Shown: positions 11,958-56,166 of the stretch, in pieces
How positions within the stretch are numbered: position 1 is the stretch's first letter
How the letters are laid out: the number at the start of each line of letters is the position of its first letter
Assembly (NCBI GenBank): GCA_964635655.1
Contig: CAZWOC010000004.1
Span: 29,521-93,520, forward strand
Length of the DNA stretch: 64,000 nt
Source of the DNA: an uncultured Rikenella sp.
Lineage (GTDB): Bacteria > Bacteroidota > Bacteroidia > Bacteroidales > VadinHA17
Direction: 5' to 3'
Notes under the pieces: generated by a model
What the model saw: the letters and a program-made list of their open reading frames with translations, nothing else
What the model was told of the DNA's origin: nothing
Database searches by the model: none
Position numbers and translations under genes: made by a program

Positions 11958-11985
11958 CCCACATCAGACAGAGCGCAGCGACAGC

Positions 11986-12103: not shown

Positions 12104-12111
12104 TAACTTTG
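12104..12111 (+). promoter_or_regulatory. Bacteroidota-type -7 promoter box (TAnnTTTG) upstream of susC-like gene 1
   Basis: TAACTTTG is a perfect match to TAnnTTTG, 45 nt upstream of the ATG at 12156. No well-spaced -33 TTTG was seen. Confidence 0.4.
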
Positions 12112-12155
12112 ATATTGAACTATTCAACACCCTAATCGACACTAAACTGACAACT

Positions 12156-15200: not shown

Positions 15201-15225
15201 CAGACTCCCCGAAAAACAAGAATCA

Positions 15226-28194: not shown

Positions 28195-29232
28195 ATGCAA
28201 GCAAGAGTTTTGACCTTTGGAGAAATTATGCTCAGATTGTCAACTGAGCGTTATGAACGTTTCAGTCAGGCCGGTAGTTACAAGGCCACATTCGGGGGAG
28301 GTGAAGCCAATGTGGCAGTCTCCCTGGCAAATTTCGGGCTGAATACTGACTTCATTACACGCCTTCCCGACAATGACATCGGCCAGGCTTGCCTGATGGA
28401 TTTGCGCCGTTACAATGTGGGAACATCACGGATCATCATCGGAGGTGACAGGCTGGGGATCTACTTCATTGAAACAGGTGCAGTCGCTCGTGGAAGCAAA
28501 GTCATTTATGATCGCGCCCATTCTTCAATCTCGGAAATAAATCCAGGAATGCTGAATTGGGATGATATCATGGAAGGTGCCACCTGGTTCCATTGGACAG
28601 GTATTACCCCTGCAATTTCCGAAGGTGCAGCAGAAGTCTGCAAGGAGGCGATAGCAACAGCCAACCGCAAAGGAATAACTGTATCAGTAGATCTGAATTA
28701 CAGGAAGAATTTGTGGAAATGGGGGAAAAAAGCCTCTGAAGTAATGCCTGAACTGGTAGCCGGTTGCGATATAATCCTGGGAAATGAAGAAGACGCTGAA
28801 ATGGTCTTTGGAATTCGTCCTGATGGTGTTGATGTTTTAAGTGGAAATATTAAAGCCTCTGCATATGAATCGGTATGCCGTCAATTGATGGCGAGGTTCC
28901 CCAGGGCCAAAAAAGTGATTATTACACTGAGAGGTTCCATCAACGCAAATCATAATACCTGGGGCGGAGTTCTCTTCGATGGCAACAAATTACTTGAATC
29001 CAGGAATTATGATATTTCTCACATAGTTGACAGAGTTGGGGGTGGCGACAGTTTTATGGCCGGGTTAATTTATGGCCTGATCAGTTTCCCGGGCGACGAT
29101 CAGTTCGCTCTGGATTTTGCAGTTGCCGCTTCCTGCCTCAAGCATACAATACATGGAGATTTTAATCTGGTTTCTGTTAAGGAAGTGGAAAATCTCATGA
29201 AAGGGAATGCATCAGGGCGCGTATCAAGATAA
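28195..29232 (+). CDS. kdgK: 2-dehydro-3-deoxygluconokinase (PfkB family)
   Basis: 345 aa. N-terminus VLTFGEIMLRLS and the PfkB signature DRVGGGDSFMAGLIYG. Confidence 0.75.
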   Translation: MQARVLTFGEIMLRLSTERYERFSQAGSYKATFGGGEANVAVSLANFGLNTDFITRLPDNDIGQACLMDLRRYNVGTSRIIIGGDRLGIYFIETGAVARGSKVIYDRAHSSISEINPGMLNWDDIMEGATWFHWTGITPAISEGAAEVCKEAIATANRKGITVSVDLNYRKNLWKWGKKASEVMPELVAGCDIILGNEEDAEMVFGIRPDGVDVLSGNIKASAYESVCRQLMARFPRAKKVIITLRGSINANHNTWGGVLFDGNKLLESRNYDISHIVDRVGGGDSFMAGLIYGLISFPGDDQFALDFAVAASCLKHTIHGDFNLVSVKEVENLMKGNASGRVSR

Positions 29233-35217: not shown

Positions 35218-35338
35218 TGTTATGCAACGGATGGATGAGTGACTCTGGTCCTTGCCATACTTTCGAAGCCCTGCCGCAAGGCACAGCCATATTGTATCAC
35301 AGATGGAATAAAGAATAATTAAACAAATAATCAGAGAC

Positions 35339-36430: not shown

Positions 36431-36461
36431 ACCTATTTGAAATCTGTAAGAAGCTTATAAA

Positions 36462-38321: not shown

Positions 38322-38332
38322 CAATTTCTATT

Positions 38333-39805: not shown

Positions 39806-39853
39806 AACCAGCTTTAAATATTTTCTTTAAACTATGCCAAATACCTGATTAAG

Positions 39854-40753: not shown

Positions 40754-40783
40754 AAGACCTGTAACTTTCTTAAAATTAAACCT

Positions 40784-42013: not shown

Positions 42014-42856
42014 ATGAAAACCATAGTAGAAATCCGATATGCCGCACATCCGGGTGATGTAAAACATTGGGATAGTGAGCGCATCCGAAAGGAACACCTG
42101 ATACAGGACCTCTTTGAAAAAAATACAGTTAAAATGGTATACTCACTGTATGACCGGATGATCGCCGGAGGAGCCATGCCTGCAGGAGAATCACTCAAAC
42201 TCGAAGCTATTGATGAGATAAAGGCTCCATACTTCCTTCACCGACGTGAACTTGGTATTTATAATGTCGGAGGAAAGGGAACCGTGAAGGTTGACGATTC
42301 CCTGTATCCCCTTGATTTCAAGGAAGCTCTCTATGTTGGAAGCGGTGACCGCGAAGTGATCTTTGAAAGCGATGACAAGTCTAATCCTGCGCTTTTCTAT
42401 TTCTGTTCAACTCCGGCTCACCGGAGTTACCCTGATAAAAAAATAACCAAAAATGATGCTATTTCAGTTGAGCTTGGCTCAGCCGAGGCGTCAAACCACA
42501 GGGTGATAAACAAGATGGTCGTGAACCAGGTACTGGAAACATGCCAGCTTCAGATGGGCATGACCGAGCTGAAGCCGGGAAGTGTCTGGAATACAATGCC
42601 TCCGCATACACACAGCAGACGCATGGAGGTATATTTTTACTTTGAAGTACCTGAAGGTGATACTGTATGCCATTTCATGGGCGAGCCTACCGAAACAAGG
42701 GTAATATGGATGAAAAACAACGAAGCAGTCCTGTCACCTCAATGGTCAATTCATGCTGCTGCTGCCACATCGTGCTATACTTTTATATGGGGTATGGGTG
42801 GAGAGAACCTGGATTACGGCGATCAGGACTTCCTGAAACCAGGCGATCTCAGATAG
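42014..42856 (+). CDS. kduI: 5-dehydro-4-deoxy-D-glucuronate isomerase (KduI), copy 2
   Basis: 280 aa, collinear with copy 1 over its full length. Shares a 41-bp identical DNA run (42536-42576 = 3958-3998). Confidence 0.85.
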   Translation: MKTIVEIRYAAHPGDVKHWDSERIRKEHLIQDLFEKNTVKMVYSLYDRMIAGGAMPAGESLKLEAIDEIKAPYFLHRRELGIYNVGGKGTVKVDDSLYPLDFKEALYVGSGDREVIFESDDKSNPALFYFCSTPAHRSYPDKKITKNDAISVELGSAEASNHRVINKMVVNQVLETCQLQMGMTELKPGSVWNTMPPHTHSRRMEVYFYFEVPEGDTVCHFMGEPTETRVIWMKNNEAVLSPQWSIHAAAATSCYTFIWGMGGENLDYGDQDFLKPGDLR

Positions 42857-42926
42857 CAGAACATGCTACAACCGGTTGCGGTATACTTTGAATTACTATT
42901 AACAATATTATTATTAAAACTAAAGC

Positions 42927-43712
42927 ATGAGTAAAGACTTATTTAATCTGAAAGGACAAATTGCACTTGTTACAGGCGCTTCCTATGGAATCGGCATGGC
43001 TCTTGCCAAAGCTTTTGCACATGCAGGAGCCACAATAGTTTTCAATGATCTTTTCCCAGAAAAGGTGAAATCAGCTCTTGATATCTATAAAAGTGAAGGT
43101 ATCAATGCACATGGTTATGTTTTCGATGTGACGAATGAAGAAGAGGCAAAATCCTATGTTGAAAAGATAACCCATGAAGTTGGCCCTGTAACTATCCTTT
43201 GCAATAATGCAGGCATTATAAAAAGGATTCCTGCTCTTGAAATGAGTGCATCGGAATTCCGGGAAGTTATTGAAGTTGACCTCACAGGTCCATTCATTAT
43301 GTCAAAAGCGGTTGCCCCCGGAATGATAAAAAACGGAGGTGGTAAGATTATCAACATCTGTTCCATGATGAGTGAGTTGGGACGTGAGACCGTGTCAGCA
43401 TACGCAGCTGCAAAGGGAGGCCTGAAAATGCTTACCAAAAACCTGGCCTGTGAGTGGGCTGAATTCAATATACAGGTAAACGGCATAGGCCCCGGTTATA
43501 TTGCCACACCCCAGACACAGCCTCTGCGCACAGAAGGACATCCGTTTAATTCGTTTATTATCGGTCGCACCCCTGCTGCCAGGTGGGGAACACCTGAAGA
43601 CCTGTGCGGACCGGCTCTTTTCCTCGCCTCTGCTGCCTCAGACTTTGTAAACGGCCATATCCTTTATGTTGACGGTGGAATACTTGCATATATCGGCAAG
43701 CAGCCTAAATGA
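42927..43712 (+). CDS. kduD: KduD-type SDR, copy 2
   Basis: 261 aa, collinear with copy 1, with the same TGASYGIG and YAAAKGG motifs. Confidence 0.8.
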   Translation: MSKDLFNLKGQIALVTGASYGIGMALAKAFAHAGATIVFNDLFPEKVKSALDIYKSEGINAHGYVFDVTNEEEAKSYVEKITHEVGPVTILCNNAGIIKRIPALEMSASEFREVIEVDLTGPFIMSKAVAPGMIKNGGGKIINICSMMSELGRETVSAYAAAKGGLKMLTKNLACEWAEFNIQVNGIGPGYIATPQTQPLRTEGHPFNSFIIGRTPAARWGTPEDLCGPALFLASAASDFVNGHILYVDGGILAYIGKQPK

Positions 43713-44207: not shown

Positions 44208-45479
44208 ATGTTTTATAAATCAATGAGAGAAATAGATAAATACTCCTTTGGGATAGGTGACAGGTTCTCACATCAGGGCAGGGCTCAGCTTGAAGCTCTG
44301 ATAATGGCAGCAACTGAATTAGGCATAAACATTACTCCGGTCTGGAACAAGTCTAACAGGGAACATAACATAGTCCATTCGGTACCTGCAGATACCCGGG
44401 CTGAGGCTGATGATGCAGTAAAGGCCCTTAATTTTACCGGGCCCTATTTCGTTGATGCTGACCATATCAATCTCAACACCGTTATTCGCTATATCGGACA
44501 CTGTGATTTCTTTACACTCGATGTAGCCGACTATATCGGAACTGCAGCGACTGATGCCGATATTGACAGCTTCATGGATTCACACCGCTCCTACTGTGGT
44601 GACCTGCAGATACCAGGTATTACAGAAGCAGTTACCATTACAGAAAAATATCTGAGGGATTTTGCAGGTAAATTCCTCCTCGCATTGAAAAAAGCAGCTG
44701 AATTATACAATTATATAGCTTCAAAAGAAGGAGAAGGGAATTTCGTTACAGAGGTATCCATGGATGAGGTAGACGAACCGCAGAAACCGATAGACCTGCT
44801 CTTCATCCTTAAAGTCCTTGCAGAGATGAAAGTACCTCTTCAGACAGTGGCTCCAAAGTTTACCGGAAGGTTTAACAAGGGAGTCGATTATCAAGGTGAC
44901 CCCATTCGCTTTGCGCAGGAATTTGAGGAAGATATCCTTGTTGTCAAATACGCTGTCAGTCATTTCGGGCTACCAAAAAGTCTCAAGCTGAGCGTTCACT
45001 CAGGAAGTGACAAGTTCTCAATCTACAGGGCAATGGGTGATCTTATCCGGAAGCACGACTGCGGTCTTCATCTCAAAACTGCAGGCACCACTTGGTTGGA
45101 AGAGGTTATCGGTCTCGCACTGGCCGGAGGCAACGGACTTGATATGGCAAAGAAAATCTACCGTACTGCCTATTTCCGGCGTGAAGAATTGTGCGTCCCC
45201 TATACCACCGTCATAGACATCAGACCGGAGATGCTGCCTCATCCTGATACGGTTGACAATTGGGATACATTAAAATTTTCAGGCACCCTGCGTCATATAC
45301 CCGGAGATCCTGACTACAACCCCAGCTTCCGGCAGCTGATACACGTCGGATACAAGATTGCAGCTGAACTGGGGAAAGACTATACCGACGCACTCAGGGA
45401 AAATGAACGGATAATCTCTACCTGTGTCTGGGAAAACATCTACAGGCGTCATATAATACGTCTATTTACAACAGAATAA
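44208..45479 (+). CDS. uxaE: Tagaturonate/fructuronate epimerase (UxaE)-like protein, short form
   Basis: 423 aa. The blocks SFGIGDRF and FVDADHI recall the FGTGDRLG and GADADHV blocks of Thermotoga UxaE (from memory). Immediately upstream of uxaC. Confidence 0.55.
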   Translation: MFYKSMREIDKYSFGIGDRFSHQGRAQLEALIMAATELGINITPVWNKSNREHNIVHSVPADTRAEADDAVKALNFTGPYFVDADHINLNTVIRYIGHCDFFTLDVADYIGTAATDADIDSFMDSHRSYCGDLQIPGITEAVTITEKYLRDFAGKFLLALKKAAELYNYIASKEGEGNFVTEVSMDEVDEPQKPIDLLFILKVLAEMKVPLQTVAPKFTGRFNKGVDYQGDPIRFAQEFEEDILVVKYAVSHFGLPKSLKLSVHSGSDKFSIYRAMGDLIRKHDCGLHLKTAGTTWLEEVIGLALAGGNGLDMAKKIYRTAYFRREELCVPYTTVIDIRPEMLPHPDTVDNWDTLKFSGTLRHIPGDPDYNPSFRQLIHVGYKIAAELGKDYTDALRENERIISTCVWENIYRRHIIRLFTTE

Positions 45480-45490
45480 AATTTCATCCC

Positions 45491-46897
45491 ATGAAAGAGT
45501 ATATAAATGACGACTTCCTGCTCCAGGGAGAGGCAGCCCGAAGACTCTATCACGAACATTCGGAAGGATTCCCGATCATTGATTATCATTGCCACCTCAG
45601 TCCCGAGGCAATAGCCACTGACAGACGTTTTGAAGACCTGGGCCAGCTATGGCTTGAGGGAGACCATTACAAGTGGCGGGCAATGCGGGCCAATGGTATA
45701 AGTGAGAAATACATTACGGGAAAGGATACCACATTCCGGGAAAAATATGACCGGTGGGCAGAGACAGTGCCTATGACAATGCGTAACCCGCTTTACGCCT
45801 GGACCCACCTCGAACTGAAAAGGGTATTCGGGGTTGGCAGACTCCTGAACCCTGACAGTGCATCCTCCATATGGGAAGAGTGCACCGCTCTTCTGCAGCA
45901 ACCGGAGTATTCGGCACGCGAACTGATGAAGAAATTTAATGTCGAGGTGGTTTGTACCACCGATGATCCCGTTGACAGCCTCGAACATCATAAGACTATA
46001 AGGAACCAGGGCTTTGAGATCAAAGTCCTGCCTGCATGGCGGCCAGACAAAGCCATGTCACCTGAAGATCCGTCAAGGTTCATCGATTATGTCAGAAAGC
46101 TTGAGGAGGCTTCAGCAACGGAGATCAAGGGATTTTCATCACTGATTGAAGCACTGCGTATCAGACACGCCTTCTTTGCTGAAGCAGGATGCGTTCTGAG
46201 TGACCATGGTATAGAACAATTCTATGCTGATGATTACACCGAAAAAGAGGCAGGGTCTATCCTCCAGAAGGTACTCTCCGGATCACACCTGGAAAGCAGC
46301 GAGATATCAAAGTTCAAATCAGCCATGCTGTATGAACTGGCGTTGATGGACAACGAAAGCGGCTGGGTTCAGCAGTTCCACTTCGGTGCCATCCGCAACA
46401 ACAACAGCCGAATGCTGGCACAGCTCGGACCTGACACAGGGTATGACTCGATAGGCGACTTCACAATTGCCAGAACACTCTCAAAATTCCTTGACAGACT
46501 CGATTCCGGCGGTCACCTTGCCAAGACTATTCTCTATAACCTTAATCCTCGTGACAATGAACTGATAGCCGCAATGACCGGCAACTTCCAGGACGACTCA
46601 AACCCAGGAAAGATCCAGTTCGGGGCCGGATGGTGGTTCCTCGACCAGGAAACAGGAATGATCAATCAGCTCAATACCCTGTCACTGATGGGTCTCCTCA
46701 GCAGGTTCGTAGGGATGCTCACTGACTCACGCAGCTTCGTCTCATATCCCAGGCATGAATACTTCCGCAGGATTCTCTGTAACATGCTGGGAGAAGATGT
46801 CGAAAAAGGCAAACTTCCTTATTCTGAACTCGATACATTAGGTAAAATGGTCGAGATGATCTCCTACTACAACGCTAAACACTATTTCAAATTTTAA
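45491..46897 (+). CDS. uxaC: Glucuronate/galacturonate isomerase
   Basis: 468 aa. N-terminus FLLQGEAARRLYHE...PIIDYHCHL is characteristic of UxaC. Confidence 0.9.
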   Translation: MKEYINDDFLLQGEAARRLYHEHSEGFPIIDYHCHLSPEAIATDRRFEDLGQLWLEGDHYKWRAMRANGISEKYITGKDTTFREKYDRWAETVPMTMRNPLYAWTHLELKRVFGVGRLLNPDSASSIWEECTALLQQPEYSARELMKKFNVEVVCTTDDPVDSLEHHKTIRNQGFEIKVLPAWRPDKAMSPEDPSRFIDYVRKLEEASATEIKGFSSLIEALRIRHAFFAEAGCVLSDHGIEQFYADDYTEKEAGSILQKVLSGSHLESSEISKFKSAMLYELALMDNESGWVQQFHFGAIRNNNSRMLAQLGPDTGYDSIGDFTIARTLSKFLDRLDSGGHLAKTILYNLNPRDNELIAAMTGNFQDDSNPGKIQFGAGWWFLDQETGMINQLNTLSLMGLLSRFVGMLTDSRSFVSYPRHEYFRRILCNMLGEDVEKGKLPYSELDTLGKMVEMISYYNAKHYFKF

Positions 46898-46913
46898 AAA
46901 TATTTATTAAATT

Positions 46914-47594
46914 ATGTCATCATTCAGAAAAATCAATGCAATACTGGCAATGGAAGAGACCGGCCTCGTGCCTCTCTTCTTCAATTCTGACCCGGAGATA
47001 TGTAAAAAAGTAATTGCCTCATGCCATGCCGGAGGCGCAAAGGTATTTGAGTTTACCAACAGGGGCTACTTCGCCCATGAGGTCTTTGCTGATGTCAGGA
47101 AATGGGCACTCCGGGAGTTACCGGACCTGATGATAGGTGCCGGATCAGTTCCTGACGCCCCCACGGCAGCTATTTTTATGCAGATGGGTGCTGACTTTAT
47201 CGTCGCCCCCTCTCTGAATCCCGAGGTAGCCAGGATCTGCAACAGGAGAAAAGTACTCTGGATACCAGGATGCGGGACGGTGACCGAGATTTCACAGGCT
47301 GAGGAACTGGGTGCTGACATAGTGAAAATCTTTCCGGGCTCTGCCGTCGGCGGACCATCATTTGTCAAAGCCATCAAAGGCCCCTGCCCCTGGACAAGCA
47401 TAATGCCCACAGGCGGAGTGGAACCAACGGAAGAAAATCTTGGCAAATGGTTCGGGGCCGGCGTGACATGCGTGGGTATGGGTTCAGCCCTGGTGACAGA
47501 TAAAATAGTTAATGCAGGCGACTGGAAAACCCTGGAGAATATGGTGCGAAACACACTCGACCTGATCAGTAAGCTGAGGACAACCCGTAACTGA
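46914..47594 (+). CDS. eda: KDPG / 4-hydroxy-2-oxoglutarate aldolase
   Basis: 226 aa. Has VKIFPG and PTGGV blocks, and the context is hexuronate catabolism. Confidence 0.8.
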   Translation: MSSFRKINAILAMEETGLVPLFFNSDPEICKKVIASCHAGGAKVFEFTNRGYFAHEVFADVRKWALRELPDLMIGAGSVPDAPTAAIFMQMGADFIVAPSLNPEVARICNRRKVLWIPGCGTVTEISQAEELGADIVKIFPGSAVGGPSFVKAIKGPCPWTSIMPTGGVEPTEENLGKWFGAGVTCVGMGSALVTDKIVNAGDWKTLENMVRNTLDLISKLRTTRN

Positions 47595-47659
47595 CCTGGC
47601 AAGGCAGGAAGATCTGATCGCGAAAACTAACACTGGTATTTACCCTTTAGATAATAATT

Positions 47660-49189
47660 ATGCCTTTAAAAACCTCAGAAACCGGGATGACCAACTACAG
47701 GTGGGCCATCACCTCACTGTTGTTCTTTTCAGTTGCAATCAACTACATGGACCGGCAGGTACTGTCACTTACATGGAAGGATTTCATTGCACCGGAATTT
47801 CACTGGACCAACAATGACTACGGAACCATCACCGGTCTTTTCTCGATCTTTTATGCCGTCTGCCTGCTTTTTGCCGGCCGGTTTGTCGACTGGATTGACA
47901 CCAAAAAGGGGTTCCTGTGGGCAATAGGCATCTGGTCAGCAGGTGCCATACTGCACGCCTTCTGCGGGATAGCAACCTCAGGCATCACTGCCGGGAAATG
48001 GTTCGTCGGTTTTGAGGAGGCACGCAAAATAATCGGTACTGTGGATGACATCGGGCTGGTGACATCAGTCAGTGTCACTCTCTTCATATTTGCCCGGTTC
48101 GTGCTGGCCCTAGGAGAGGCGGGCAATTTTCCGGCTGCCATAAAGACAACTGCTGAGTTCTTTCCGAAGAAGGACCGCGCCTTCTCTACCAGCATCTTCA
48201 ACTCCGGAGCACAGATAGGAGCGCTCATCGCTCCGATATCCGTTCCGGTAATAGCAGCAAAATACGGCTGGGAGATGGCATTCATCGTCATTGGTGCACT
48301 AGGATTCATCTGGATGGGATTCTGGATCTTCATGTACAAAAAGCCTCATGAACACCCGCTGGTAAATAAGGCGGAGCTCGATTACATCAACCAGGATACT
48401 GTTGCGGAGACAAAGGCAAACAACAACGTGGCCGGGCCGGAAAGGAAGATACCCTTCTTCCGGACATTCGGATACCGCCAGACATGGGCTTTCGCATTCG
48501 GCAAGTTCATGACTGACGGGGTATGGTGGTTCTACCTGTTCTGGACACCAGCTTATCTCAGTGATGTCTATGGCCTGACATCTGATACCACAATGGCAAA
48601 GACACTGATCTTCGTCCTCTACGCTATAGTGATGCTGTCAATCATCGGAGGCTGGCTTCCCAAGTACTTTGTTGACAAGCTGGGGATGGATCCCTATGCC
48701 GGCCGTATGCGCGCCATGCTGATCTTCGCCTTCTTCCCTCTGCTGGCGCTTCTGGCCCAGCCGCTGGGCCACACATCCTACTGGTTCCCGGTAATAATTA
48801 TCGGGATAGCCGGAGCTGCACACCAGGCATGGTCAGCAAATCTCTTTTCCACCATCGGTGACATGTTCCCGAAATCGGCAATTGCCACAATTACAGGGAT
48901 AGGCGGAATGGCCGGAGGTATCGGTGCCTTTATAATTAACAAAGGTTCAGGCGCCCTGTTTGATTTCGCTTCCGGAACCACAATGATTGACGGGAAGGCT
49001 TCAGTCATGACAAAAGAACTTCTTGCTGCCGGAGCCCAGTATCTGGACGGACCACTGAAGTTCTTCGGTTTCGAGGGAATAAGGGCGGGCTACTTCATTG
49101 TATTCTGCATCTGCGCCGTTGCATACCTTATAGGATGGGTTGTGATGAAAATGCTTGTTCCGAAATACAAACCAATAGTAATCGAATAG
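47660..49189 (+). CDS. exuT: MFS hexuronate transporter (ExuT-like)
   Basis: 509 aa. AINYMDRQVLS near the N-terminus and multiple TM segments. Has an extra ~45-aa hydrophilic loop near the C-terminus. An alternative start is possible at 47687. Confidence 0.75.
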   Translation: MPLKTSETGMTNYRWAITSLLFFSVAINYMDRQVLSLTWKDFIAPEFHWTNNDYGTITGLFSIFYAVCLLFAGRFVDWIDTKKGFLWAIGIWSAGAILHAFCGIATSGITAGKWFVGFEEARKIIGTVDDIGLVTSVSVTLFIFARFVLALGEAGNFPAAIKTTAEFFPKKDRAFSTSIFNSGAQIGALIAPISVPVIAAKYGWEMAFIVIGALGFIWMGFWIFMYKKPHEHPLVNKAELDYINQDTVAETKANNNVAGPERKIPFFRTFGYRQTWAFAFGKFMTDGVWWFYLFWTPAYLSDVYGLTSDTTMAKTLIFVLYAIVMLSIIGGWLPKYFVDKLGMDPYAGRMRAMLIFAFFPLLALLAQPLGHTSYWFPVIIIGIAGAAHQAWSANLFSTIGDMFPKSAIATITGIGGMAGGIGAFIINKGSGALFDFASGTTMIDGKASVMTKELLAAGAQYLDGPLKFFGFEGIRAGYFIVFCICAVAYLIGWVVMKMLVPKYKPIVIE

Positions 49190-49200
49190 AAAAATTACTC

Positions 49201-50046
49201 ATGAAAGATTTCAGTGATCTGAAAGGAAAAGTTGCCGCCATAACCGGTGGCAGCGGGATAATCGGAAAAACGCTAGCCAGGGGCCTCTGCAGCGCAGGGG
49301 TGAATGTGATAATACTGGACTACAAGGTCGAAAGGGGAGCAATGACAGCCAAAGAGATCACCGCCGGACAGGAAGCCGGTCTGGCAACGAGTATCGATGC
49401 GAATGTACTCGACCGTGATTCACTGCTAAAAGCACGTGACCATATAAGGGGAAAATTCGGTACTCTTGACATCCTCATTAACTGCGCCGGAGGGAACAAA
49501 GCCAATGCCACGACAGCAAAAGAGTTCATCGCAGGAGGCGAAAAAGACTTGCATGGCACCTTTTTCGACCTTGATATCGAAGGATTTGACGGAGTCTTCG
49601 ACCTTAACTTCAAGGGGACAGTGCTTCCTACGATGATCCTGGCGGAGGATATGGTCAGCAGAGGCAGTGGAGTGATATTGAATATATCCTCGATGAATGG
49701 TTACAGACCTCTCACCAAGATCCCGGCTTATTCAGCAGCCAAGGCTGCAATCAACAACCTCACCCAGTGGCTGGCGGTCCATTTCGCGCCTGCCGGAGTG
49801 AGGGTCAATGCAATCGCCCCGGGATTCCTGCTGACAAACCAGAACCGGTTCCTCCTTACTGACGAAAAAACAGGCGGGATGACCCCGCGGGGTAAGAAAA
49901 TAATCTCCGCCACACCAATGGGACGCTATGCCGAACCAGAAGAACTTGTCGGGACTATGCTCTACCTGTTGTCTGAGACTTCATCATTCGTCACTGGAGT
50001 GGTGATACCTGTCGACGGAGGTTTTGGTGCGTTCAGCGGGGTATAG
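49201..50046 (+). CDS. uxuB: SDR oxidoreductase, probable fructuronate reductase / D-mannonate oxidoreductase (SDR-type UxuB)
   Basis: The track ORF (49135) overlaps exuT. The ATG at 49201 gives MKDFSDLKGKVAAITGGSGIIG. A Y-x3-K motif (YSAAKAA) is present. Context is hexuronate catabolism. Confidence 0.55.
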   Translation: MKDFSDLKGKVAAITGGSGIIGKTLARGLCSAGVNVIILDYKVERGAMTAKEITAGQEAGLATSIDANVLDRDSLLKARDHIRGKFGTLDILINCAGGNKANATTAKEFIAGGEKDLHGTFFDLDIEGFDGVFDLNFKGTVLPTMILAEDMVSRGSGVILNISSMNGYRPLTKIPAYSAAKAAINNLTQWLAVHFAPAGVRVNAIAPGFLLTNQNRFLLTDEKTGGMTPRGKKIISATPMGRYAEPEELVGTMLYLLSETSSFVTGVVIPVDGGFGAFSGV

Positions 50047-50109
50047 ACATTCACGGGAGTCAATACCTTTATTAACCAAAAAGTCTTTTATTATGTTGTA
50101 GTCAACAGT

Positions 50110-51372
50110 ATGATACATCATTCTGAAACCGGCCCTGACAGCGGAATTAAAAGGGATAAGGTCAGGGCAGCCCTTGAATCTATACTCAGCAGCTTCAGCG
50201 AAAGGAAGCGTGTGCTGATATTGCCTCCCGACATCACCCGGGCACACTCAGGGGCGGGGATGATTACCGAACTTCTGTGGGAGAAACTGGGCGGACAGGT
50301 CACTGATATTCTCCCCGCACTGGGCACACATATGCCGATGACACCGGAGGAGATATCCAAAATGTACGGTCAAACACCTCCCGGACTTTTCAGGGAACAC
50401 CGCTGGCGGACTGATATAGAAGAACTCGGCAGGGTACCCTCGTCATTTGTTTCGCAGGTGACGGGCGGACGCCTCAGCTTTGACTACCCGGTTCAGGTAA
50501 ACAGGCTGCTATCATCCGGCGGGCATGACCTGATCATTTCTGTCGGCCAGGTGGTGCCTCATGAGGTCACAGGCATGGCCAACTACAACAAGAATGTCTT
50601 CGTGGGCTGCGGCGGCAGCGAGGCTATCAACAAGAGCCACTTCATAGGAGCGGTGCACGGAATAGAAAACATTCTCGGAACCACCGACAACCCGGTGAGG
50701 GCGGTGCTGAACAAGGCCTCCGAGATTGCCGCACCGCGTCTGCCGTTGATTTACATCCTGACAGTGGTGGCTCCTGACAGTAAAGGCTGCCTGAAGATAA
50801 GGGGCCTCTATGCCGGTGATGACATCGAATGCTTCAGACAGGCCGCAGCGCTCTCGCGCGAAGTCAACTTCACCACGATGCCACACAGGCTGAAAAAGGT
50901 GGTGGTGTGGCTTGACCCGGAGGAGTTCAAGAGCACATGGCTGGGAAACAAGAGCATCTACCGCACCCGCATGATGATTGCCGATGACGGCGAACTTGTG
51001 GTACTTGCCCCCGGAGTAAGGACTTTTGGCGAAGACCCTGCAATCGACAGGCTGATAAGGAAATACGGTTACAGAACCACCCCGGAGATCCTTGCTTTCA
51101 CTGAAGCAAACCAGGATCTGCAGGATAACCTCAGTGCTGCTGCCCATCTTATCCACGGCTCACCGGAGAACAGGTTCAGGGTTACATATGCTGCGGGCCG
51201 GCTTACCCGCGCAGAAGTTGAGTCTGTCGGCTACAACTTCGGGGAGATCGAGCCGCTCATGAAGCTTTATGACCCGGAGAACCTGCAGACAGGATTTCAT
51301 GTTACCGCTGACGGGGAGGAATTTTATTTTATATCCAATCCTGCCACGGGACTATGGAGAGCAGATGAATAG
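50110..51372 (+). CDS. LarA-like (lactate racemase N-terminal domain / DUF2088) putative nickel-pincer 2-hydroxyacid epimerase
   Basis: 420 aa. Contains ALGTHMPMTPEE (His74) and VVPHEVTGMANYNKNVFVGCGGSEAINKSH. His151, Lys161 and His177 are spaced +10 and +16, as His174, Lys184 and His200 are in L. plantarum LarA. Confidence 0.65.
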   Translation: MIHHSETGPDSGIKRDKVRAALESILSSFSERKRVLILPPDITRAHSGAGMITELLWEKLGGQVTDILPALGTHMPMTPEEISKMYGQTPPGLFREHRWRTDIEELGRVPSSFVSQVTGGRLSFDYPVQVNRLLSSGGHDLIISVGQVVPHEVTGMANYNKNVFVGCGGSEAINKSHFIGAVHGIENILGTTDNPVRAVLNKASEIAAPRLPLIYILTVVAPDSKGCLKIRGLYAGDDIECFRQAAALSREVNFTTMPHRLKKVVVWLDPEEFKSTWLGNKSIYRTRMMIADDGELVVLAPGVRTFGEDPAIDRLIRKYGYRTTPEILAFTEANQDLQDNLSAAAHLIHGSPENRFRVTYAAGRLTRAEVESVGYNFGEIEPLMKLYDPENLQTGFHVTADGEEFYFISNPATGLWRADE

Positions 51373-51376
51373 AACC

Positions 51377-52555
51377 ATGAAGATAATTATTGACGAAAAC
51401 ATACCCTTCATCAGGGGCGCCTTCGAAAGGTGGGCTGATGTTGTCTACGCACCGGGACGCGCCATCAATTCGAAGATGGTTGCAGACGCCGATGCGCTGA
51501 TAGTGCGGACGCGTACAAAATGCAACGCTGATCTCCTGAGCGGAAGCAGCGTCAGGATCGTTGCCACGGCTACAATCGGTTTTGATCACATAGATACTGT
51601 GTGGCTGGAACAAAATGGCATAAAATGGGCCAATGCGCCGGGATGCAACTCCGGGTCGGTGATGCAATACGTCACCTCCCTCCTGCTTTTCCTGGCTAAA
51701 AAGCACTCCTTTGACCCCGGCTCAATGACCCTCGGCGTGGTGGGAGTGGGAAACGTCGGCTCCAGGGTGGCAAGGGCTGCAAACGCATTAGGCATGCGTG
51801 TCCTGCTGAATGACCCGCCCCGGCAGAGACGTGAAGAGGGCAGAGACATGAATACGGGAGGCTCGGATCTTCATAAAGAAGGCCGCCGGAGTGATGCTCA
51901 GTTCCACCCCCTGGGCAAACTGCTTCACGAATCGGACATACTTACACTGCATGTCCCCCTGACAATGGAAGGCATCGATAAAACATTCCACCTGATTGAC
52001 AGGGAGGTTCTTTCACTGCCGGTCAGACAAAAAATCTTAATCAACACTTCACGCGGGGAGGTTGTTGACAATCCCGCACTGCGTGAAGCGCTGAAGTCAG
52101 GCCGCATGCGCGGCGCCGCCCTTGACGTTTGGGAGGGAGAACCGGCTGCCGACCCTCAGCTGATTGACCTGGCTGACATTGCAACACCCCACATTGCAGG
52201 ATACTCGGTGGACGGCAAAGCAAACGCCACTGTCAGTTCCGTAAGAGTGGTGGCATCAGAACTCGGTCTGCCTATGCAAGACTGGACTCCGGCCACGCTG
52301 CCGCAACCTGACCAGCAACTTATCAACCTTACCGGCAGAGGCAGCGCCTCACCCATCGAACTGGTTGCAATTGCAGTGAATCATACTTACCCCATCGAAG
52401 CAGATGACCGGCTTTTCAGAAAAAACAGGGAAAATTTCGAGTACCTTCGCGACAACTACAGGATCAGACGGGAGTTCTCTTCATACATGGTAAGAACCAA
52501 TGACCCAAAGACGGAACATATTCTGACAGAACTTGGATTTAAGATAATTAAATGA
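51377..52555 (+). CDS. pdxB: Erythronate-4-phosphate dehydrogenase
   Basis: MKIIIDENIPFIRGAFE... aligns with E. coli PdxB MKILVDENMPYARDLF... along the whole length, including VGVGNVGSRV and the C-terminal dimerisation region. The upstream in-frame starts (51269, 51365) are unlikely. Confidence 0.85.
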   Translation: MKIIIDENIPFIRGAFERWADVVYAPGRAINSKMVADADALIVRTRTKCNADLLSGSSVRIVATATIGFDHIDTVWLEQNGIKWANAPGCNSGSVMQYVTSLLLFLAKKHSFDPGSMTLGVVGVGNVGSRVARAANALGMRVLLNDPPRQRREEGRDMNTGGSDLHKEGRRSDAQFHPLGKLLHESDILTLHVPLTMEGIDKTFHLIDREVLSLPVRQKILINTSRGEVVDNPALREALKSGRMRGAALDVWEGEPAADPQLIDLADIATPHIAGYSVDGKANATVSSVRVVASELGLPMQDWTPATLPQPDQQLINLTGRGSASPIELVAIAVNHTYPIEADDRLFRKNRENFEYLRDNYRIRREFSSYMVRTNDPKTEHILTELGFKIIK

Positions 52556-52574
52556 CTTATTTAAAAGTGTTGAA

Positions 52575-54023
52575 ATGAAAGCAGATATCGGATTGATTGG
52601 ACTGGCAGTGATGGGCGAAAACCTTGTACTCAATATCGAGAGCAGGGGATTCACAGTTGCAGTCTACAACCGTACCACTGAAAAAGTGTCATCATTTATG
52701 AACGGACGGGGCAAGGGAAAGAAGCTTATCGCCTCTTACTCGCTTGAGGAGTTCGTCTCAAGTCTCAGCCGGCCGAGGAAAGTAATGCTTATGGTCAAAG
52801 CGGGCAAACCCGTTGATGACTTCATCGAACTGCTGATTCCGCTTCTCGACAAAGGTGACATAATTATCGAGGGAGGCAACTCGCATTTCCCTGACACAAT
52901 AAGGCGAACCGCCTATGTTGAAAGCAAGGGGCTGCTCTATATCGGCACTGGCGTTTCCGGCGGTGAGGAAGGTGCGCTTCTCGGACCCTCGATGATGCCC
53001 GGCGGCTCCAGGGAGGCATGGCTGCATGTGAAGGATATCTTCCATGCAATTGCTGCGCGGGCCTCCGACGGCGCTCCCTGCGTGTCATGGATAGGAGACA
53101 ACGGCGCCGGCCACTTCGTCAAGATGGCACACAACGGCATAGAATACGGTGACATGCAGCTCATCTGTGAGGCATACCACCTGATGCTGAGCTCCGGCGC
53201 ATTCACATATGACGGGATGGCTGATATCTTCGACGAGTGGAACACGGGTGAGCTTGACTCTTACCTGATCCAGATAACCGGCGAGATACTCAGATACAAA
53301 GACACTGATGGTCAGCCACTTGTCGCCCGGATACTGGACTCAGCCGGCCAGAAGGGAACAGGCAAATGGACAGTGGTCAGCGCTCTCGATCACGGGGTGC
53401 CTCTCAGCCTCATAGGCGAATCAGTCTTCGCACGGTTCATCTCGTCAATGAAGAAGGAGAGGGTGAAAGCCTCTCCCCTCTTCGACAGCCCCGGAAAGAT
53501 AATTCTTAAGGATAAAAAAGAGTTTGTCGACGATATCCGCAAGACACTTTATGCATCGAAGATAGTCTCCTACGCCCAGGGATTCAACCTTCTCAGGAAT
53601 GCAGCTGCAGAGTATAAATGGGATCTTAATTATGGGGAAATCGCAATGATATGGAGGGGTGGCTGCATCATCCGGTCTGCCTTCCTCAACAAAATATACG
53701 AGGCGTTCAAACGCGAACCCGGCCTGCCCAACCTGATAACCGACAGGTATTTTACAGGCATCCTGAGGGAGAACAGTGAGAGCTGGCGCCGTGTGGTTGC
53801 CCGGGCCGTATCTGCAGGCATCCCCGTGCCGGCGATGAGCGCCGCCCTCGCCTGGTTCGACAGCTATCGTTCCGAGTGGCTGCCGGCCAGCCTTCTCCAG
53901 GCTCAACGCGACTATTTCGGAGCACACACCTACCAGCGTACCGACAAACCTGAAGGAGAGTTCTTCCACACAAACTGGACGGGCCGCGGAGGAGATACAG
54001 CTTCATCAACGTATAACGCCTGA
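52575..54023 (+). CDS. gnd: 6-phosphogluconate dehydrogenase (decarboxylating)
   Basis: 482 aa. Contains IGLIGLAVMGENLVLN, GGNSHF, and FVKMAHNGIEYGDMQLI. Confidence 0.92.
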   Translation: MKADIGLIGLAVMGENLVLNIESRGFTVAVYNRTTEKVSSFMNGRGKGKKLIASYSLEEFVSSLSRPRKVMLMVKAGKPVDDFIELLIPLLDKGDIIIEGGNSHFPDTIRRTAYVESKGLLYIGTGVSGGEEGALLGPSMMPGGSREAWLHVKDIFHAIAARASDGAPCVSWIGDNGAGHFVKMAHNGIEYGDMQLICEAYHLMLSSGAFTYDGMADIFDEWNTGELDSYLIQITGEILRYKDTDGQPLVARILDSAGQKGTGKWTVVSALDHGVPLSLIGESVFARFISSMKKERVKASPLFDSPGKIILKDKKEFVDDIRKTLYASKIVSYAQGFNLLRNAAAEYKWDLNYGEIAMIWRGGCIIRSAFLNKIYEAFKREPGLPNLITDRYFTGILRENSESWRRVVARAVSAGIPVPAMSAALAWFDSYRSEWLPASLLQAQRDYFGAHTYQRTDKPEGEFFHTNWTGRGGDTASSTYNA

Positions 54024-54084: not shown

Positions 54085-56118
54085 ATGACCAAGAACCTAA
54101 ACGAACGCGCAGCTGACAATATCCGTATTCTCTCAATGGCAATGGTTGAGAAGGCAAACTCCGGACATCCGGGTGGAGCAATGGGCGGAGCTGATTTCAT
54201 CCACATCCTTTTCTCTGAATTCCTCAGGTTTGATCCGGCAGACCCTGAATGGATCAACCGTGACCGCTTTTTCCTTGACCCGGGACATATGTCGCCTATG
54301 CTCTACTCAGTGCTGACACTTACCGGGCACTTTACGACTGATGACATAAAACAGTTCCGTCAGTGGGGAAGCATCACTCCCGGTCACCCCGAGCGTGATG
54401 TGAAACATGGTGTGGAGAACACCTCCGGACCACTGGGTCAGGGCCACACGATGGCCGTCGGAGCCGCCATTGCAGAACGGTTTCTCGCAACACGGTTCGG
54501 CAGGCTCTTCGAACACAGAATCTATACATATATCTCTGACGGCGGCATCCAGGAGGAGATTTCACAGGGCGCCGGCAGACTGGCCGGCCATCTTGGCCTG
54601 AGCAACCTGGTAATGTTCTATGACTCGAACGATATTCAGCTCTCAACCGAAACATCGGCAGTGACCTCGGAAGACACAGCCGCCAAATACAGGGCATGGG
54701 GCTGGCGCGTCATGGAGATCGACGGTCATAACCACGACCAGATACGGGGAGCCCTTCGTCTTGCGGAAGACGAAAACGAAAAACCGGTCCTTATTATCGG
54801 AAAAACCGTAATGGGAAAAGGACTTGTCGACGACGCCGGTAACAGCTTCGAAGGAAAAACCTCGACACACGGTCAGCCGGTAACACATGCAGGCGGCTCA
54901 TTTAAGAAATCAGTTGCAAATCTCGGCGGTGACCCGGAAGATCCGTTTGCCATCTTCAGCGACGTCAGAAAACTCTACGAGGATGCAATGGCTTCAAAAA
55001 AAGCAGCAGCAGCAGACTGGAAAGAGAAAAGACAAGCCTGGGCAGCGGCCAATCCGGAGGCAGCACAACTGCTTGACAGTTTCTATTCAGGAGCCGTACC
55101 GGAAATCAACTTCGCCGGGGTGGTACAGAAGGAAAATGACGCCACACGCAATGCCTCCGCGGTTCTGCTCTCACTGTTTGCAGGGAAAATACCCAACATG
55201 ATTGTCGCCTCTGCCGACCTGGCTAACTCTGACAAAACCGACGGATTCCTCAAGAAAAGCAAGCCGCTGGTCAGGGGTGATTTCTCAGGTGCATTCCTTC
55301 ATGCCGGTGTCACCGAGCTGACAATGGCAGCATTGATGAACGGCATGGCCCTCCACGGAGGCGTCATTCCAGTATGCGGCACCTTCTTCGTCTTTTCCGA
55401 CTACATGAAGCCTGCGGTAAGGCTCGCGGCGCTAATGGGTCTGCCTGTCAAGTATGTATGGACTCATGACGCCTTCCGCGTGGGTGAGGATGGCCCCACC
55501 CACCAGCCGGTGGAACAGGAGGCCCAGATAAGGCTCATGGAACACCTGAAGAACCACCATGGTGAAAACAGCATGCTGGTGCTTCGCCCTGCTGATGCAC
55601 TAGAAACGAACATCGCATGGCAGCTGGCGCTGGAAAACAAAACGACACCGACGGGACTGATACTTTCACGCCAGAATATAAAGACACTGCCGGCTGCAGG
55701 AAAGACACGCGCCGAAGCTGCAGCAATGGCCGCCAGAGGCGCCTATACAGTGACAGAGAGCGACGGCAGGCCCGACGTGATCCTCGTCGCCAGCGGTTCC
55801 GAAGTGGCAACCCTCGTGGAGGCTGCAGCCCTCCTCTCGGCTGACGGAGTAAAGTCAAGAATTGTATCAGCTCCCTCGGAAGGCCTTTTCAGACTGCAGG
55901 ATGAAAAATACCGGCACAGCATTATCACCCCGGGCATTCCGGTGTTCTGCCTGACTGCAGGACTGCCTGTGACAATGCTCGGCTTAGCCGGATCTGAAGG
56001 AAAGATATGGGGGCTGGAGAGCTTCGGTTTCTCGGCAGCCTACGGAATACTCGATCAGAAACTGGGCTTCACCGGTGAAAACATCGCAAAGGAGGTGAAG
56101 AAGTTTCTCGGGAAATAA
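54085..56118 (+). CDS. tkt: Transketolase
   Basis: 677 aa. Contains SGHPGGAMG and THDAFRVGEDGPTHQPVE. Confidence 0.92.
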   Translation: MTKNLNERAADNIRILSMAMVEKANSGHPGGAMGGADFIHILFSEFLRFDPADPEWINRDRFFLDPGHMSPMLYSVLTLTGHFTTDDIKQFRQWGSITPGHPERDVKHGVENTSGPLGQGHTMAVGAAIAERFLATRFGRLFEHRIYTYISDGGIQEEISQGAGRLAGHLGLSNLVMFYDSNDIQLSTETSAVTSEDTAAKYRAWGWRVMEIDGHNHDQIRGALRLAEDENEKPVLIIGKTVMGKGLVDDAGNSFEGKTSTHGQPVTHAGGSFKKSVANLGGDPEDPFAIFSDVRKLYEDAMASKKAAAADWKEKRQAWAAANPEAAQLLDSFYSGAVPEINFAGVVQKENDATRNASAVLLSLFAGKIPNMIVASADLANSDKTDGFLKKSKPLVRGDFSGAFLHAGVTELTMAALMNGMALHGGVIPVCGTFFVFSDYMKPAVRLAALMGLPVKYVWTHDAFRVGEDGPTHQPVEQEAQIRLMEHLKNHHGENSMLVLRPADALETNIAWQLALENKTTPTGLILSRQNIKTLPAAGKTRAEAAAMAARGAYTVTESDGRPDVILVASGSEVATLVEAAALLSADGVKSRIVSAPSEGLFRLQDEKYRHSIITPGIPVFCLTAGLPVTMLGLAGSEGKIWGLESFGFSAAYGILDQKLGFTGENIAKEVKKFLGK

Positions 56119-56134
56119 GGCCTTCATGCCTGTG

Positions 56135-56166
56135 GTGCGGTCTCATACGTGACCGCACTTTTTTTT
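56135..56166 (+). terminator. Rho-independent terminator after tkt
   Basis: GTGCGGTC (56135-56142), 8-nt loop, GACCGCAC (56151-56158), then T8. Confidence 0.8.

Follow-up and report, generated by a model that had tools for sequence, protein, structure and literature searches.

The gene at 50110..51372 on the forward strand of a 64,000-nucleotide stretch of DNA from an uncultured Rikenella sp. (hereafter the window) encodes a LarA-like protein and lies between hexuronate catabolism genes and a pdxB-gnd-tkt group, which raises the question of what such an enzyme does at this position. The ORF was confirmed, with an ATG start and a length of 420 aa. Its product, named LarAH18 as a member of LarA homologue group 18, probably has D-mannonate and D-gluconate as its substrate pair and would thereby feed the pentose-phosphate pathway; the substrate, the cofactor loading and the direction of flux are those that we infer from the evidence below.

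Family, fold and active-site residues

The Pfam Lar_N domain (PF09861) was found on residues 25-179 with 55.3 bits (cut-off 23.3, E 6.5e-15), and the NCBIfam model NF052594 matched residues 11-417 over positions 3-410 of its 411, with 615.8 bits (cut-off 500, E 2.9e-185). NF052594 (NPN_18_hexonate) is an equivalog model equivalent to LarA-homologue group 18; its name, "nickel-dependent putative hexonate epimerase", goes no further than a putative hexonate epimerase. The second-best NCBIfam model, malate racemase, reached 71 bits. A LarAH18 profile matched the Thermotoga maritima structure 4NAR with an E-value of 6.5e-66, and by these three E-values the resemblance of the sequence to LarA is far beyond chance.

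When LarAH18 was aligned with HMMER to the LarA structures 5HUQ, 6C1W and 8EZF, its H74, H151, K161 and H177 fell on H108, H174, K184 and H200 of LarA, and its D41 and R44 on D72 and R75. H74 lies in G72-T73-H74, the codons of H151, K161 and H177 start at nt 50560, 50590 and 50638, and the H-x9-K-x15-H spacing is that of LarA H174/K184/H200. K281 corresponds to LarA K298, by direct alignment only to the Thermoanaerobacterium thermosaccharolyticum LarA 2YJG and with the K298 numbering taken from the group-18 signature in Dataset S2 of Desguin et al. As judged from these alignments, all LarA catalytic and cofactor residues (D41, R44, H74, H151, K161, H177, K281) are kept in register. Among 40 relatives, a set reaching down to 31% identity, D41, R44, H74, H151, E152, V153, K161, H177, W277, K281 and A345-H346 are at least 90% conserved.

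An AF2 model of LarAH18 (pLDDT 95.4, pTM 0.92) was compared with the PDB using Foldseek. All 19 of the 19 matches with E < 1e-3 are LarA-family structures, the top one being T. maritima TM0442/GntE2 (4NAR; E 2.7e-32, TM 0.82), a proven D-gluconate 2-epimerase. The model thus predicts the two-domain LarA fold. The original prediction had described a LarA-like enzyme with the H-x9-K-x15-H residues; its residue numbers, nucleotide positions and spacing were right, and both the profile search and the structural model bear out the superfamily assignment, the former narrowing it to group 18.

The identity of LarAH18 to published group-18 proteins, such as those of M. roseus, T. forsythia and A. capsulatum, is 51-58%. 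Its motifs GQVVPHEV, STWLGNK and LSAAAHLIHGS are identical in a published group-18 member, and PPDITR, GTH, NKN, SH and LTVV also agree with the members listed in Dataset S2. Since the motifs that hold most of the 20 signature positions are identical to those of a published member, the signature appears to be the group-18 consensus D R H H E V K H V W L N K S A A L I H S; the I220-equivalent (the V in LTVV) was placed by motif, and the other positions were read against Dataset S2. In the D-gluconate 2-epimerases (GntE; LarAH groups 19 and 20 and the 2024 GntE branch), specificity is marked by Glu-Val/Ser following the second of the catalytic His residues, by a helix 11 Trp and by Ala/His on helix 14. 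LarAH18 has the corresponding residues in its H151-E152-V153 loop, W277 and A345-H346 (in AAAHLIH), all of them conserved.

The hexuronate cluster in the window

The genes around larAH18 are tightly packed on the forward strand in the order UxaE-UxaC-Eda-MFS-UxuB-LarAH18-PdxB-Gnd-Tkt. The first encodes a UxaE-family tagaturonate/fructuronate epimerase homologue (44208..45479; Pfam PF16257 UxaE, E 1.3e-46) and is followed by the glucuronate (uronate) isomerase gene uxaC (45491..46897; Pfam UxaC 669.6 bits, NCBIfam PRK02925 647.8 bits) and by a KDPG/KHG aldolase gene, eda, of the KDG branch (46914..47594; PRK07114 341 bits, cut-off 275). An MFS transporter of the anionic sugar or sugar-acid type (47687..49189; Pfam MFS_1) resembles the D-galactonate-transporter subfamily TIGR00893 weakly, with 164 bits, far under the cut-off of 395. 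Directly upstream of larAH18 is the gene for a 281-aa SDR fructuronate reductase/D-mannonate oxidoreductase of the UxuB type (49201..50046; PRK08277 373.8 bits, cut-off 281), which presumably makes the substrate of LarAH18; its start and that of the MFS gene follow the genes called on contigs of identical sequence.

Downstream, the first 8 nt of pdxB (51365..52555), whose start is supported by gene calls, overlap the end of larAH18; an alternative ATG is at 51377. Its product belongs to the PdxB family of 4-phosphoerythronate dehydrogenases (Pfam 2-Hacid_dh, 2-Hacid_dh_C and DUF3410), with a PRK00257 score of 424 bits, slightly below the cut-off of 434. The next gene, gnd (52575..54023; TIGR00873 741 bits, cut-off 426.7), encodes a decarboxylating 6-phosphogluconate dehydrogenase of the NADP type, presumably the sink of the pathway, and tkt (54085..56118; Pfam Transketolase_N, Transket_pyr and Transketolase_C_1) encodes a transketolase. 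Directly after tkt, also on the forward strand, a terminator-like hairpin with a 9-bp stem including 6 G-C pairs, followed by TTTTTTT (56134..56159; a consensus match only), is the likely end of the transcription unit. No terminator-like site was found from uxuB through larAH18 and pdxB to the end of gnd. An Rfam scan of the window detected no RNA family, and so no riboswitch on the larAH18 operon; a sigma-70 promoter scan, whose consensus is ill-suited to Bacteroidota, gave nothing above the shuffled background. One same-strand block (44208-54023) thus holds all five genes, those for UxaE, UxaC, the fructuronate reductase, the epimerase and Gnd.

In the proposed pathway, galacturonate or glucuronate would be isomerised by UxaC, tagaturonate converted to fructuronate by UxaE and fructuronate reduced to D-mannonate by the UxuB-type SDR. 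LarAH18 would then turn D-mannonate into D-gluconate, with His74 and His151 as the predicted acid/base pair: the C2 hydroxyl would transiently be oxidised to a 2-keto acid as its hydride passes to the cofactor, and the hydride would return from the other face. D-Gluconate would be phosphorylated by a kinase encoded outside the window, and Gnd would decarboxylate 6-phosphogluconate to ribulose-5-phosphate, to be carried on by Tkt. Unsaturated uronates would be handled in parallel by KduI, KduD, KdgK and Eda.

Among the non-overlapping window ORFs of at least 150 aa (antisense ORFs nested in longer genes being left out), Pfam and NCBIfam searches found no larB, larC, larE, uxuA or gluconokinase gene, and tblastn of the window with UxuA and GntK queries gave no match. 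Likewise, larB, larC and larE were found neither in some 10 kb of sequence past either end of the window nor among the recurrent gene clusters flanking the loci of the best 80 listed relatives, and a motif search of the 1,127 ORFs in these 80 loci, which is a weak test, detected no lar gene. Since none was seen in the window, in the extensions or in the related flanks, the supply of nickel-pincer nucleotide (NPN) to LarAH18 is assumed.

No GntK/IdnK, FGGY or LarAH18-linked PfkB/PFK kinase was found in the window, which therefore lacks the kinase of a Thermotoga-type pathway; a gluconokinase may be encoded elsewhere in the genome. The sole sugar-acid kinase in the window is a PfkB-family protein of the KdgK type (28195..29232, forward strand; Pfam PfkB), 21 kb upstream of larAH18. 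It matches best to the kinase portion of a KDPG-aldolase/kinase fusion model, with 505 bits (full-length cut-off 700). It was considered as the missing gluconate kinase and rejected: it groups with the distal KdgK type, outside the two LarAH18-linked subgroups, and is 25-33% identical to the PfkB kinases adjacent to LarAH18 in relatives.

The original prediction had placed the gene directly after a probable fructuronate reductase and one gene ahead of gnd and tkt, in a window with no larB, larC, larE or uxuA, and all of this was recovered by the searches above. It had also proposed that the epimerase explains the missing uxuA. The absence itself stands, but the explanation is weakened: uxuA adjoins the larAH18 homologue in 7 of the 80 best listed related loci. 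Given these seven, the LarAH18 route is better described as a branch, not necessarily as a replacement of the uxuA route.

Gene context in relatives and competing substrates

The loci of the best 80 listed relatives, mostly from Bacteroidales MAGs, were surveyed together with the window (81 loci). An SDR cluster including the UxuB-type reductase, in which KduD-type SDRs are also counted, is present in 67 of the 81, mostly 1-4 genes upstream. Gnd occurs in 60 (48 at position +2 and 8 at +1), UxaC in 57, UxaE in 48 and PdxB at +1 in 42, and Tkt lies downstream of Gnd in 23. Natural fusions of a GntK/IdnK-type gluconokinase with LarAH18 form four 50%-identity representative clusters, with scores of 123.9 bits for TIGR01313 (cut-off 113.75) and 575.8 bits for NF052594. 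One such fusion was seen in two assemblies independent of each other, where it immediately follows UxaC and an SDR. Taken together, family, fold, specificity residues, the conserved UxuB and Gnd linkage and the gluconokinase fusions support well the idea, put forward in the original prediction, of a D-mannonate/D-gluconate epimerase linking hexuronates to the pentose-phosphate pathway.

The activity data behind this assignment all come from relatives, namely GntE1, GntE2 and the Phytophthora nicotianae GntE. GntE1 and GntE2 have been proven to be D-gluconate 2-epimerases (PMC7583248). The Km of characterised GntEs for D-mannonate is high (9-120 mM), and for this reason, by analogy, a related compound could be the physiological substrate of LarAH18.

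One such compound is 6-phospho-D-mannonate. If a kinase acted first, LarAH18 would be a 6-phosphomannonate/6-phosphogluconate 2-epimerase feeding Gnd directly, which we consider unlikely. Phosphorylation before epimerisation has been shown in extracts of Lactobacillus suebicus, without an assigned epimerase gene, and the gluconokinase homologues of that organism seem to prefer mannonate (Valk et al.). The high Km of GntEs for free mannonate would fit such a route, as would the order SDR - kinase - LarAH18 - (PdxB) - Gnd in many relatives, which is colinear with its reactions; the kinase immediately upstream of LarAH18 in relatives is either a PFK-family protein or a member of one of two PfkB subfamilies other than KdgK. 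Gene order is, however, weak evidence, and free D-mannonate is the substrate of every relative characterised so far, among them probably an orthologue from group 18. Moreover, the kinase domain of the natural fusions scores above the GntK/IdnK gluconokinase cut-off, and nothing points to a phosphate pocket in group 18, as its signature positions hold no extra basic residue and the Arg of groups 19 and 20 is Ser in this group.

An extended form of the same proposal, that LarAH18 is the 6-phosphomannonate 2-epimerase of the L. suebicus redox-neutral galacturonate route and that the previously undescribed kinases adjacent to it in relatives are mannonate kinases, appears slightly less probable still. 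The candidate mannonate kinases in relatives are the members of the two PfkB subfamilies and a PFK-family protein. The latter is paired with an unclassified HAD-like protein, for which searches of Pfam, NCBIfam and PDB sequences gave no match. 4-Phosphoerythronate inhibits 6-phosphogluconate dehydrogenase. PdxB, whose place between LarAH18 and Gnd is strongly conserved, could have a role in the pathway, for example in removing 4-phosphoerythronate, and not be a bystander vitamin-B6 gene.

It is rather improbable that LarAH18 epimerises C2 of another sugar acid, converting D-fructuronate to its 2-epimer 5-keto-D-gluconate or acting on D-altronate/D-allonate or L-idonate/L-gulonate. The authors of the family name it just "hexonate epimerase", group 19 may prefer a mannonate isomer (PMC7583248), and of the 20 signature positions 6-7 are not the same in group 18 as in groups 19 and 20. 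Two window SDRs that match "gluconate 5-dehydrogenase" (PRK07097, 458-470 bits) could reduce 5-keto-gluconate, but both adjoin KduI genes, as expected for KduD. The SDR beside LarAH18 belongs to the mannonate-oxidoreductase family. For the formation or use of altronate, no gene of the UxaB or UxaA type was found in the window, and the gluconokinase fusions and the Gnd linkage suggest gluconate as the product.

That LarAH18 is a lactate racemase, as the JGI label "nickel-dependent lactate racemase" on many close homologues would have it, or an inactive remnant unable to bind the cofactor, as the lack of NPN biosynthesis genes nearby might suggest, is highly improbable, because the NCBIfam lactate-racemase model scores just 44.7 bits against a cut-off of 460, Glu-Val replaces the two Phe after the catalytic His in a different pocket, the gene context is unrelated to lactate, and the conservation of cofactor and catalytic residues in the 40 relatives would be unexpected for a decaying gene.

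Comparison with known systems

If LarAH18 is indeed a D-mannonate/D-gluconate 2-epimerase, saturated pectin-derived uronates would in this uncultured anaerobic Bacteroidales pass through mannonate and gluconate to 6-phosphogluconate and in this way enter the pentose-phosphate pathway. Gnd would regain the NAD(P)H that fructuronate reductase consumes, making the route redox-neutral, a property of value in pectin bioconversion (Valk et al. 2020). LarAH18 relatives are carried by at least 525 GTDB species genomes, whereas in the COG set only 9 of 192 Bacteroidota have any LarA homologue, which shows the nickel-dependent step to be far commoner in metagenome genomes of Bacteroidales and Ignavibacteria than reference counts indicate. 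Genes annotated "lactate racemase" or "DUF2088" in such clusters are better read as coding for probable mannonate/gluconate 2-epimerases, and would imply a requirement for nickel and NPN during growth on pectin.

The idea is not new, since Desguin et al. 2020 (PMC7583248) made the same hexonate-epimerase prediction for group 18 from the same gene context and the family already has an NCBI name; LarAH18 is a clear member of a catalogued group. The epimerase assignment agrees with that prediction, with the Thermotoga pathway and probably with the 2024 assay of a Phytophthora orthologue. No group-defining feature of group 18 (G2E3 in the 2020 study) differs in LarAH18. The published context (SDR, 6-phosphogluconate dehydrogenase, MFS permease, UxaC and KduI) is common to the window, and in both cases there are no lar genes nearby; the window copy differs in coming from an uncultured Bacteroidales lineage.

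The P. nicotianae enzyme, published as LarAH15, is a eukaryotic, narrow-spectrum D-gluconate 2-epimerase with a Km of 9.4 mM, a kcat of 111 s-1 and a kcat/Km of 1.2e4 M-1 s-1 for D-mannonate (Urdiain-Arraiza et al. 2024, PMC11770544). The primer used to clone it codes for an N-terminal M-A-TLLFAEG that agrees with the LarA part of P. infestans PITG_09435, a listed group-18 protein, and on this match it is probably an orthologue of a group-18 member and so of the same group as LarAH18.

Lactiplantibacillus plantarum LarA (5HUQ) shares the fold of LarAH18 (TM 0.72, ~16% identity), the Ni ligand, the Lys tether, the two catalytic His and the phosphate-binding residues. LarAH18 differs from it by the Glu-Val for Phe-Phe in the pocket and by having no lar operon around it.

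The closest structural counterpart is T. maritima GntE2/LarAH20 (TM0442), which has the same catalytic and NPN residues, H-E-x loop and helix 11 Trp, at 24% identity in the structural alignment; the differing specificity positions (LarAH18/GntE2) are V/S, L/T, N/G, H/N and S/R. The same hexuronate pathway was proposed for T. maritima, where the epimerase step was verified later. That organism has an FGGY gluconokinase gene beside the epimerase gene, unlike the window, but of the steps in its route (UxaC, UxaE, UxuB, GntE, GntK, Gnd), UxaC, UxaE, the SDR reductase and Gnd are likewise clustered around larAH18.

The pectin and uronate region around larAH18

The window, from an uncultured anaerobic member of the Bacteroidales, is a region for the use of pectin and uronates. 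Besides a hybrid two-component regulator it encodes two SusC/SusD pairs, GH28, CE8 and GH88/GH105-like enzymes and two KduI-KduD pairs, and it also holds a myo-inositol cluster and the gene of a KdgK-type kinase. The gene arrangement of the original prediction, a LarA-like gene with a probable fructuronate reductase gene upstream and pdxB, gnd and tkt downstream, was recovered in full. The ORF at 50110-51372 lies on the forward strand, starts with ATG and encodes a protein of 420 amino acids, here named LarAH18, whose closest named relatives are from Bacteroidales and Rikenellaceae MAGs (72-90% identical). It belongs to a same-strand block encoding, in this order, a UxaE-like protein (starting at 44208), UxaC (45491), Eda (46914), an MFS transporter (47687), an SDR D-mannonate oxidoreductase of the UxuB type (49201), LarAH18, PdxB (51365-52555), Gnd (52575) and Tkt (54085). 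Depending on which start is used, pdxB begins 8 nt ahead of the larAH18 stop codon or 4 nt past it. No terminator-like hairpin was found between uxuB, larAH18 and pdxB; a weaker one follows gnd, and the only strong one (56134-56159) lies directly after tkt.

As had also been predicted, neither uxuA nor the nickel-pincer nucleotide (NPN) biosynthesis genes larB, larC and larE were detected in the 64-kb window by Pfam and NCBIfam scans of its non-overlapping ORFs of at least 150 aa, nor were uxaA, uxaB or a gluconokinase gene; UxuA and GntK queries were searched by tblastn as well. The same genes were not found in approximately 10 kb past each window end, read from other contigs with identical edge proteins. 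These extensions encode a helicase, a GH2 enzyme and a further SusC/D pair as well as a trimeric [FeFe]-hydrogenase. The NuoF-like and NuoE-like genes at 1527-3166 (reverse strand) run on past the left end (L092/L093) into the hydrogenase large subunit; the trimeric enzyme is probably electron-bifurcating and points to a fermenting anaerobe.

A block of ~24.7 kb (19491-44238) is missing from the nearest species representatives (loci L024, L006 and L007), in which the CE8 pectinesterase gene lies ~150 nt from uxaE. Its G+C content is 42-45%, versus 48-54% on both flanks, and the block has the appearance of an island gained by transfer. Encoded in it are a SusC/SusD pair, an AraC regulator, the KdgK-type kinase, a GH88 enzyme, an SSF symporter, a DUF4861 protein, myo-inositol genes and the second KduI-KduD pair. 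The myo-inositol catabolism cluster (34303-41803) encodes IolB, IolD, IolE, IolG and an IolA-like CoA-acylating methylmalonate-semialdehyde dehydrogenase, with a 363-aa transaldolase-family gene (35339-36430) between iolB and iolD; the IolC and IolJ models had no match in this cluster. Neither Pfam nor NCBIfam gave a match for a 597-aa ORF (25179-26972) directly downstream of a susD gene. The first SusC/SusD pair (12156-17187; region 11922-17175) is missing from L024 and L006, where GH28 directly follows the GH88/105-like gene. The two KduI-KduD pairs and two DUF4861 genes are found at 3415-6232 and at 33039-33848 / 42014-43712, DUF4861 being directly adjacent only to the first pair (3415-6232). 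Both KduI-adjoining SDRs pass the NCBIfam 'gluconate 5-dehydrogenase' model PRK07097 (458 and 470 bits), but their position beside KduI suggests that they are KduD.

Assignment of LarAH18 to LarA homologue group 18

The predicted catalytic residues and their spacing were confirmed. LarAH18 contains G72-T73-H74, H151 (nt 50560), K161 (nt 50590) and H177 (nt 50638), with the same H-x9-K-x15-H spacing as H174, K184 and H200 of LarA. HMMER alignments to solved lactate racemase structures, using the protein itself and a 40-sequence profile as queries, placed H74, H151, K161 and H177 on H108, H174, K184 and H200, with D41 and R44 falling on D72 and R75, which bind phosphate. K281 corresponds to the carboxylate-binding K298, as judged from the published signature table together with the alignment to 2YJG. 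In relatives with identities as low as 31%, each of these seven residues is at least 90% conserved. That the tether lysine, the nickel-ligand histidine and the phosphate binders are strictly conserved points indirectly to use of the NPN cofactor. The match to LarA is not due to chance, as the Pfam Lar_N model gave an E-value of 6.5e-15 and the 40-sequence profile matched 4NAR with 6.5e-66.

Desguin et al. 2020 (PMC7583248) divided 354 LarA homologues into 25 groups, and D-mannonate to D-gluconate epimerisation was proven for groups 19 (Corynebacterium GntE1) and 20 (Thermotoga GntE2). LarAH18 is a full-length equivalog match to NCBIfam NF052594, 'nickel-dependent putative hexonate epimerase' (615.8 bits, cut-off 500), the name of which points to group 18; next in rank were the models for malate racemase (71 and 49 bits) and for lactate racemase (44.7 bits, cut-off 460). 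Six of the proteins listed for group 18, ranging from Melioribacter roseus to a diatom, are 58, 54, 55, 54, 51 and 49% identical to LarAH18. Because LarAH18 shares the signature motifs of these members, it appears to carry the consensus signature of group 18, D R H H E V K H V W L N K S A A L I H S; for group 19 the consensus is ...W T A K G L A S T H R, and for group 20 it is ...E S K H A W T G K N A A V I N R.

An AlphaFold2 model built from 40 sequences was confident (pLDDT 95.4, pTM 0.92), and all 19 significant Foldseek matches in the PDB were LarA-family structures. The modelled fold appears nearer to the Thermotoga maritima TM0442/GntE2 apoprotein 4NAR, the top match (E 2.7e-32, TM 0.82), than to the LarA holoenzyme 5HUQ (TM 0.72). 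LarAH18 is a group-18 protein by all sequence, structure and context features of that group, and it also has the specificity pattern of GntE enzymes.

Related loci, linked kinases and fusion proteins

One genome per GTDB species was scanned, and at least 525 species carry a relative. The best 80 loci were taken with 10-kb flanks and, together with the window (81 loci), their ORFs were called, clustered and counted by position relative to the larAH18 gene. An SDR cluster including the UxuB type was present in 67 loci, mostly 1-4 genes upstream, Gnd in 60 (48 at +2, 8 at +1), UxaC in 57, a UxaE-like protein in 48, an MFS transporter in 31, Eda and KduI in 26 each, Tkt in 23, and UxuA in 7, adjacent or up to 4 genes upstream. 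These neighbours agree in kind (SDR, Gnd, kinase, MFS, UxaC, KduI) with the published group-18 context table, which lists SDR (36%), 6-phosphogluconate dehydrogenase (32%), ribokinase-family kinase (16%), MFS, UxaC and KduI, and no lar genes (PMC7583248).

PdxB was found in 46 loci (42 at +1), and its gene lies between larAH18 and gnd in Bacteroidales, MAGs labelled Chitinophaga and Ignavibacteria. A GFO/IDH/MocA oxidoreductase, present in 18 loci, holds the +1 place in 16 others. The PdxB substrate 4-phosphoerythronate inhibits 6-phosphogluconate dehydrogenase.

In many related loci a dedicated kinase of one of two forms adjoins larAH18 (e.g. L014:7772-9052, L043:8868-9950 and L054:8903-9982). 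The first is a PfkB-family kinase with two subgroups (8 and 12 loci), 25-33% identical to the KdgK-type kinase and co-existing with it in the same locus. The second, in 17 loci, belongs to the PFK family (PPi-PFK-like PRK14072 subfamily, 363 bits), and its gene usually lies before a HAD-like gene. Both are candidate gluconate or mannonate kinases of an undescribed type. The 294-aa HAD-like protein (motif DSDGCVFD) had no Pfam, NCBIfam or PDB sequence match; its gene occupies position -1 in 32 loci and lies between the SDR gene and larAH18 in the closest relatives (L006-L027, ~9060-10000). The window lineage lacks it and has only a 63-nt spacer (50047-50109).

A homologue search across 1.8 billion cluster representatives yielded 2,444 relatives. 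In four of them (P0125, P0126, P0143 and P0150; ~590-610 aa) an N-terminal domain of the shikimate-kinase fold (SKI) is fused to LarAH18. P0125, on which the NCBIfam scan of these fusions was run, passes the GntK/IdnK gluconokinase model (123.9 bits, cut-off 113.75) with its kinase domain and NF052594 (575.8 bits) with its LarAH18 domain. P0126 is encoded directly downstream of UxaC and an SDR in two independent assemblies, giving a module of three genes that leads from glucuronate to 6-phosphogluconate. This fusion is the strongest new evidence that the product passed to the kinase is gluconate or a close analogue. Another representative, P0138 (823 aa), joins LarAH18 (NF052594, 531 bits) to a C-terminal AGE-family domain like cellobiose 2-epimerase or mannose isomerase, uniting two C2-epimerase types in one protein.

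Predicted reaction and comparison with known routes

D-mannonate/D-gluconate is the most likely substrate pair. From the homology to LarA, NPN would be tethered to K161, with H177 binding the nickel. The hydroxyl proton would be accepted and donated in turn by H74 and H151, while a hydride would leave C2 for the cofactor and return on the opposite face. UxuB would supply D-mannonate, LarAH18 would convert it to D-gluconate, and a kinase and Gnd would consume the latter.

There is a small chance that the kinase acts first and LarAH18 epimerises 6-phosphomannonate, an activity seen in L. suebicus extracts with no epimerase gene assigned (Valk et al. 2020). The order SDR-kinase-LarAH18-Gnd in many loci is colinear with such a reaction order and Km values for free mannonate are high, but every assayed relative uses the free acid and the group-18 signature positions include no extra basic residue. 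Somewhat less probable still is a preference for another hexonate or a keto-uronate, D-fructuronate and 5-keto-D-gluconate being themselves 2-epimers. A lactate racemase or a dead enzyme is hardly credible in view of the conservation, the pocket residues and the model scores, lactate racemase falling far below its cut-off.

The predicted D-mannonate/D-gluconate 2-epimerase is supported by the group-18 match, the GntE specificity pattern, the conserved context and the gluconokinase fusions; it reproduces a published prediction for a family already named by NCBI. Remaining points of interest are the group-18 enzymes of bacteria, the HAD-like protein and the kinases of undescribed type encoded beside them, and the conserved PdxB between epimerase and Gnd. 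The proposed steps are those put forward for Thermotoga by Rodionova et al. 2012, of which the epimerase step was verified in 2020 (PMC7583248), but the window encodes no gluconate kinase alongside. An orthologue from group 18 has probably been assayed before, since the cloning primer of 'LarAH15' from Phytophthora nicotianae encodes M-A-TLLFAEG (PMC11770544), a match to the beginning of the LarA portion of P. infestans PITG_09435, which the 2020 dataset places in group 18 (PMC7583248). LarAH15 is a narrow-spectrum GntE with a Km of 9.4 mM, a kcat of 111 s-1 and a kcat/Km of 1.2e4 M-1 s-1 (PMC11770544).
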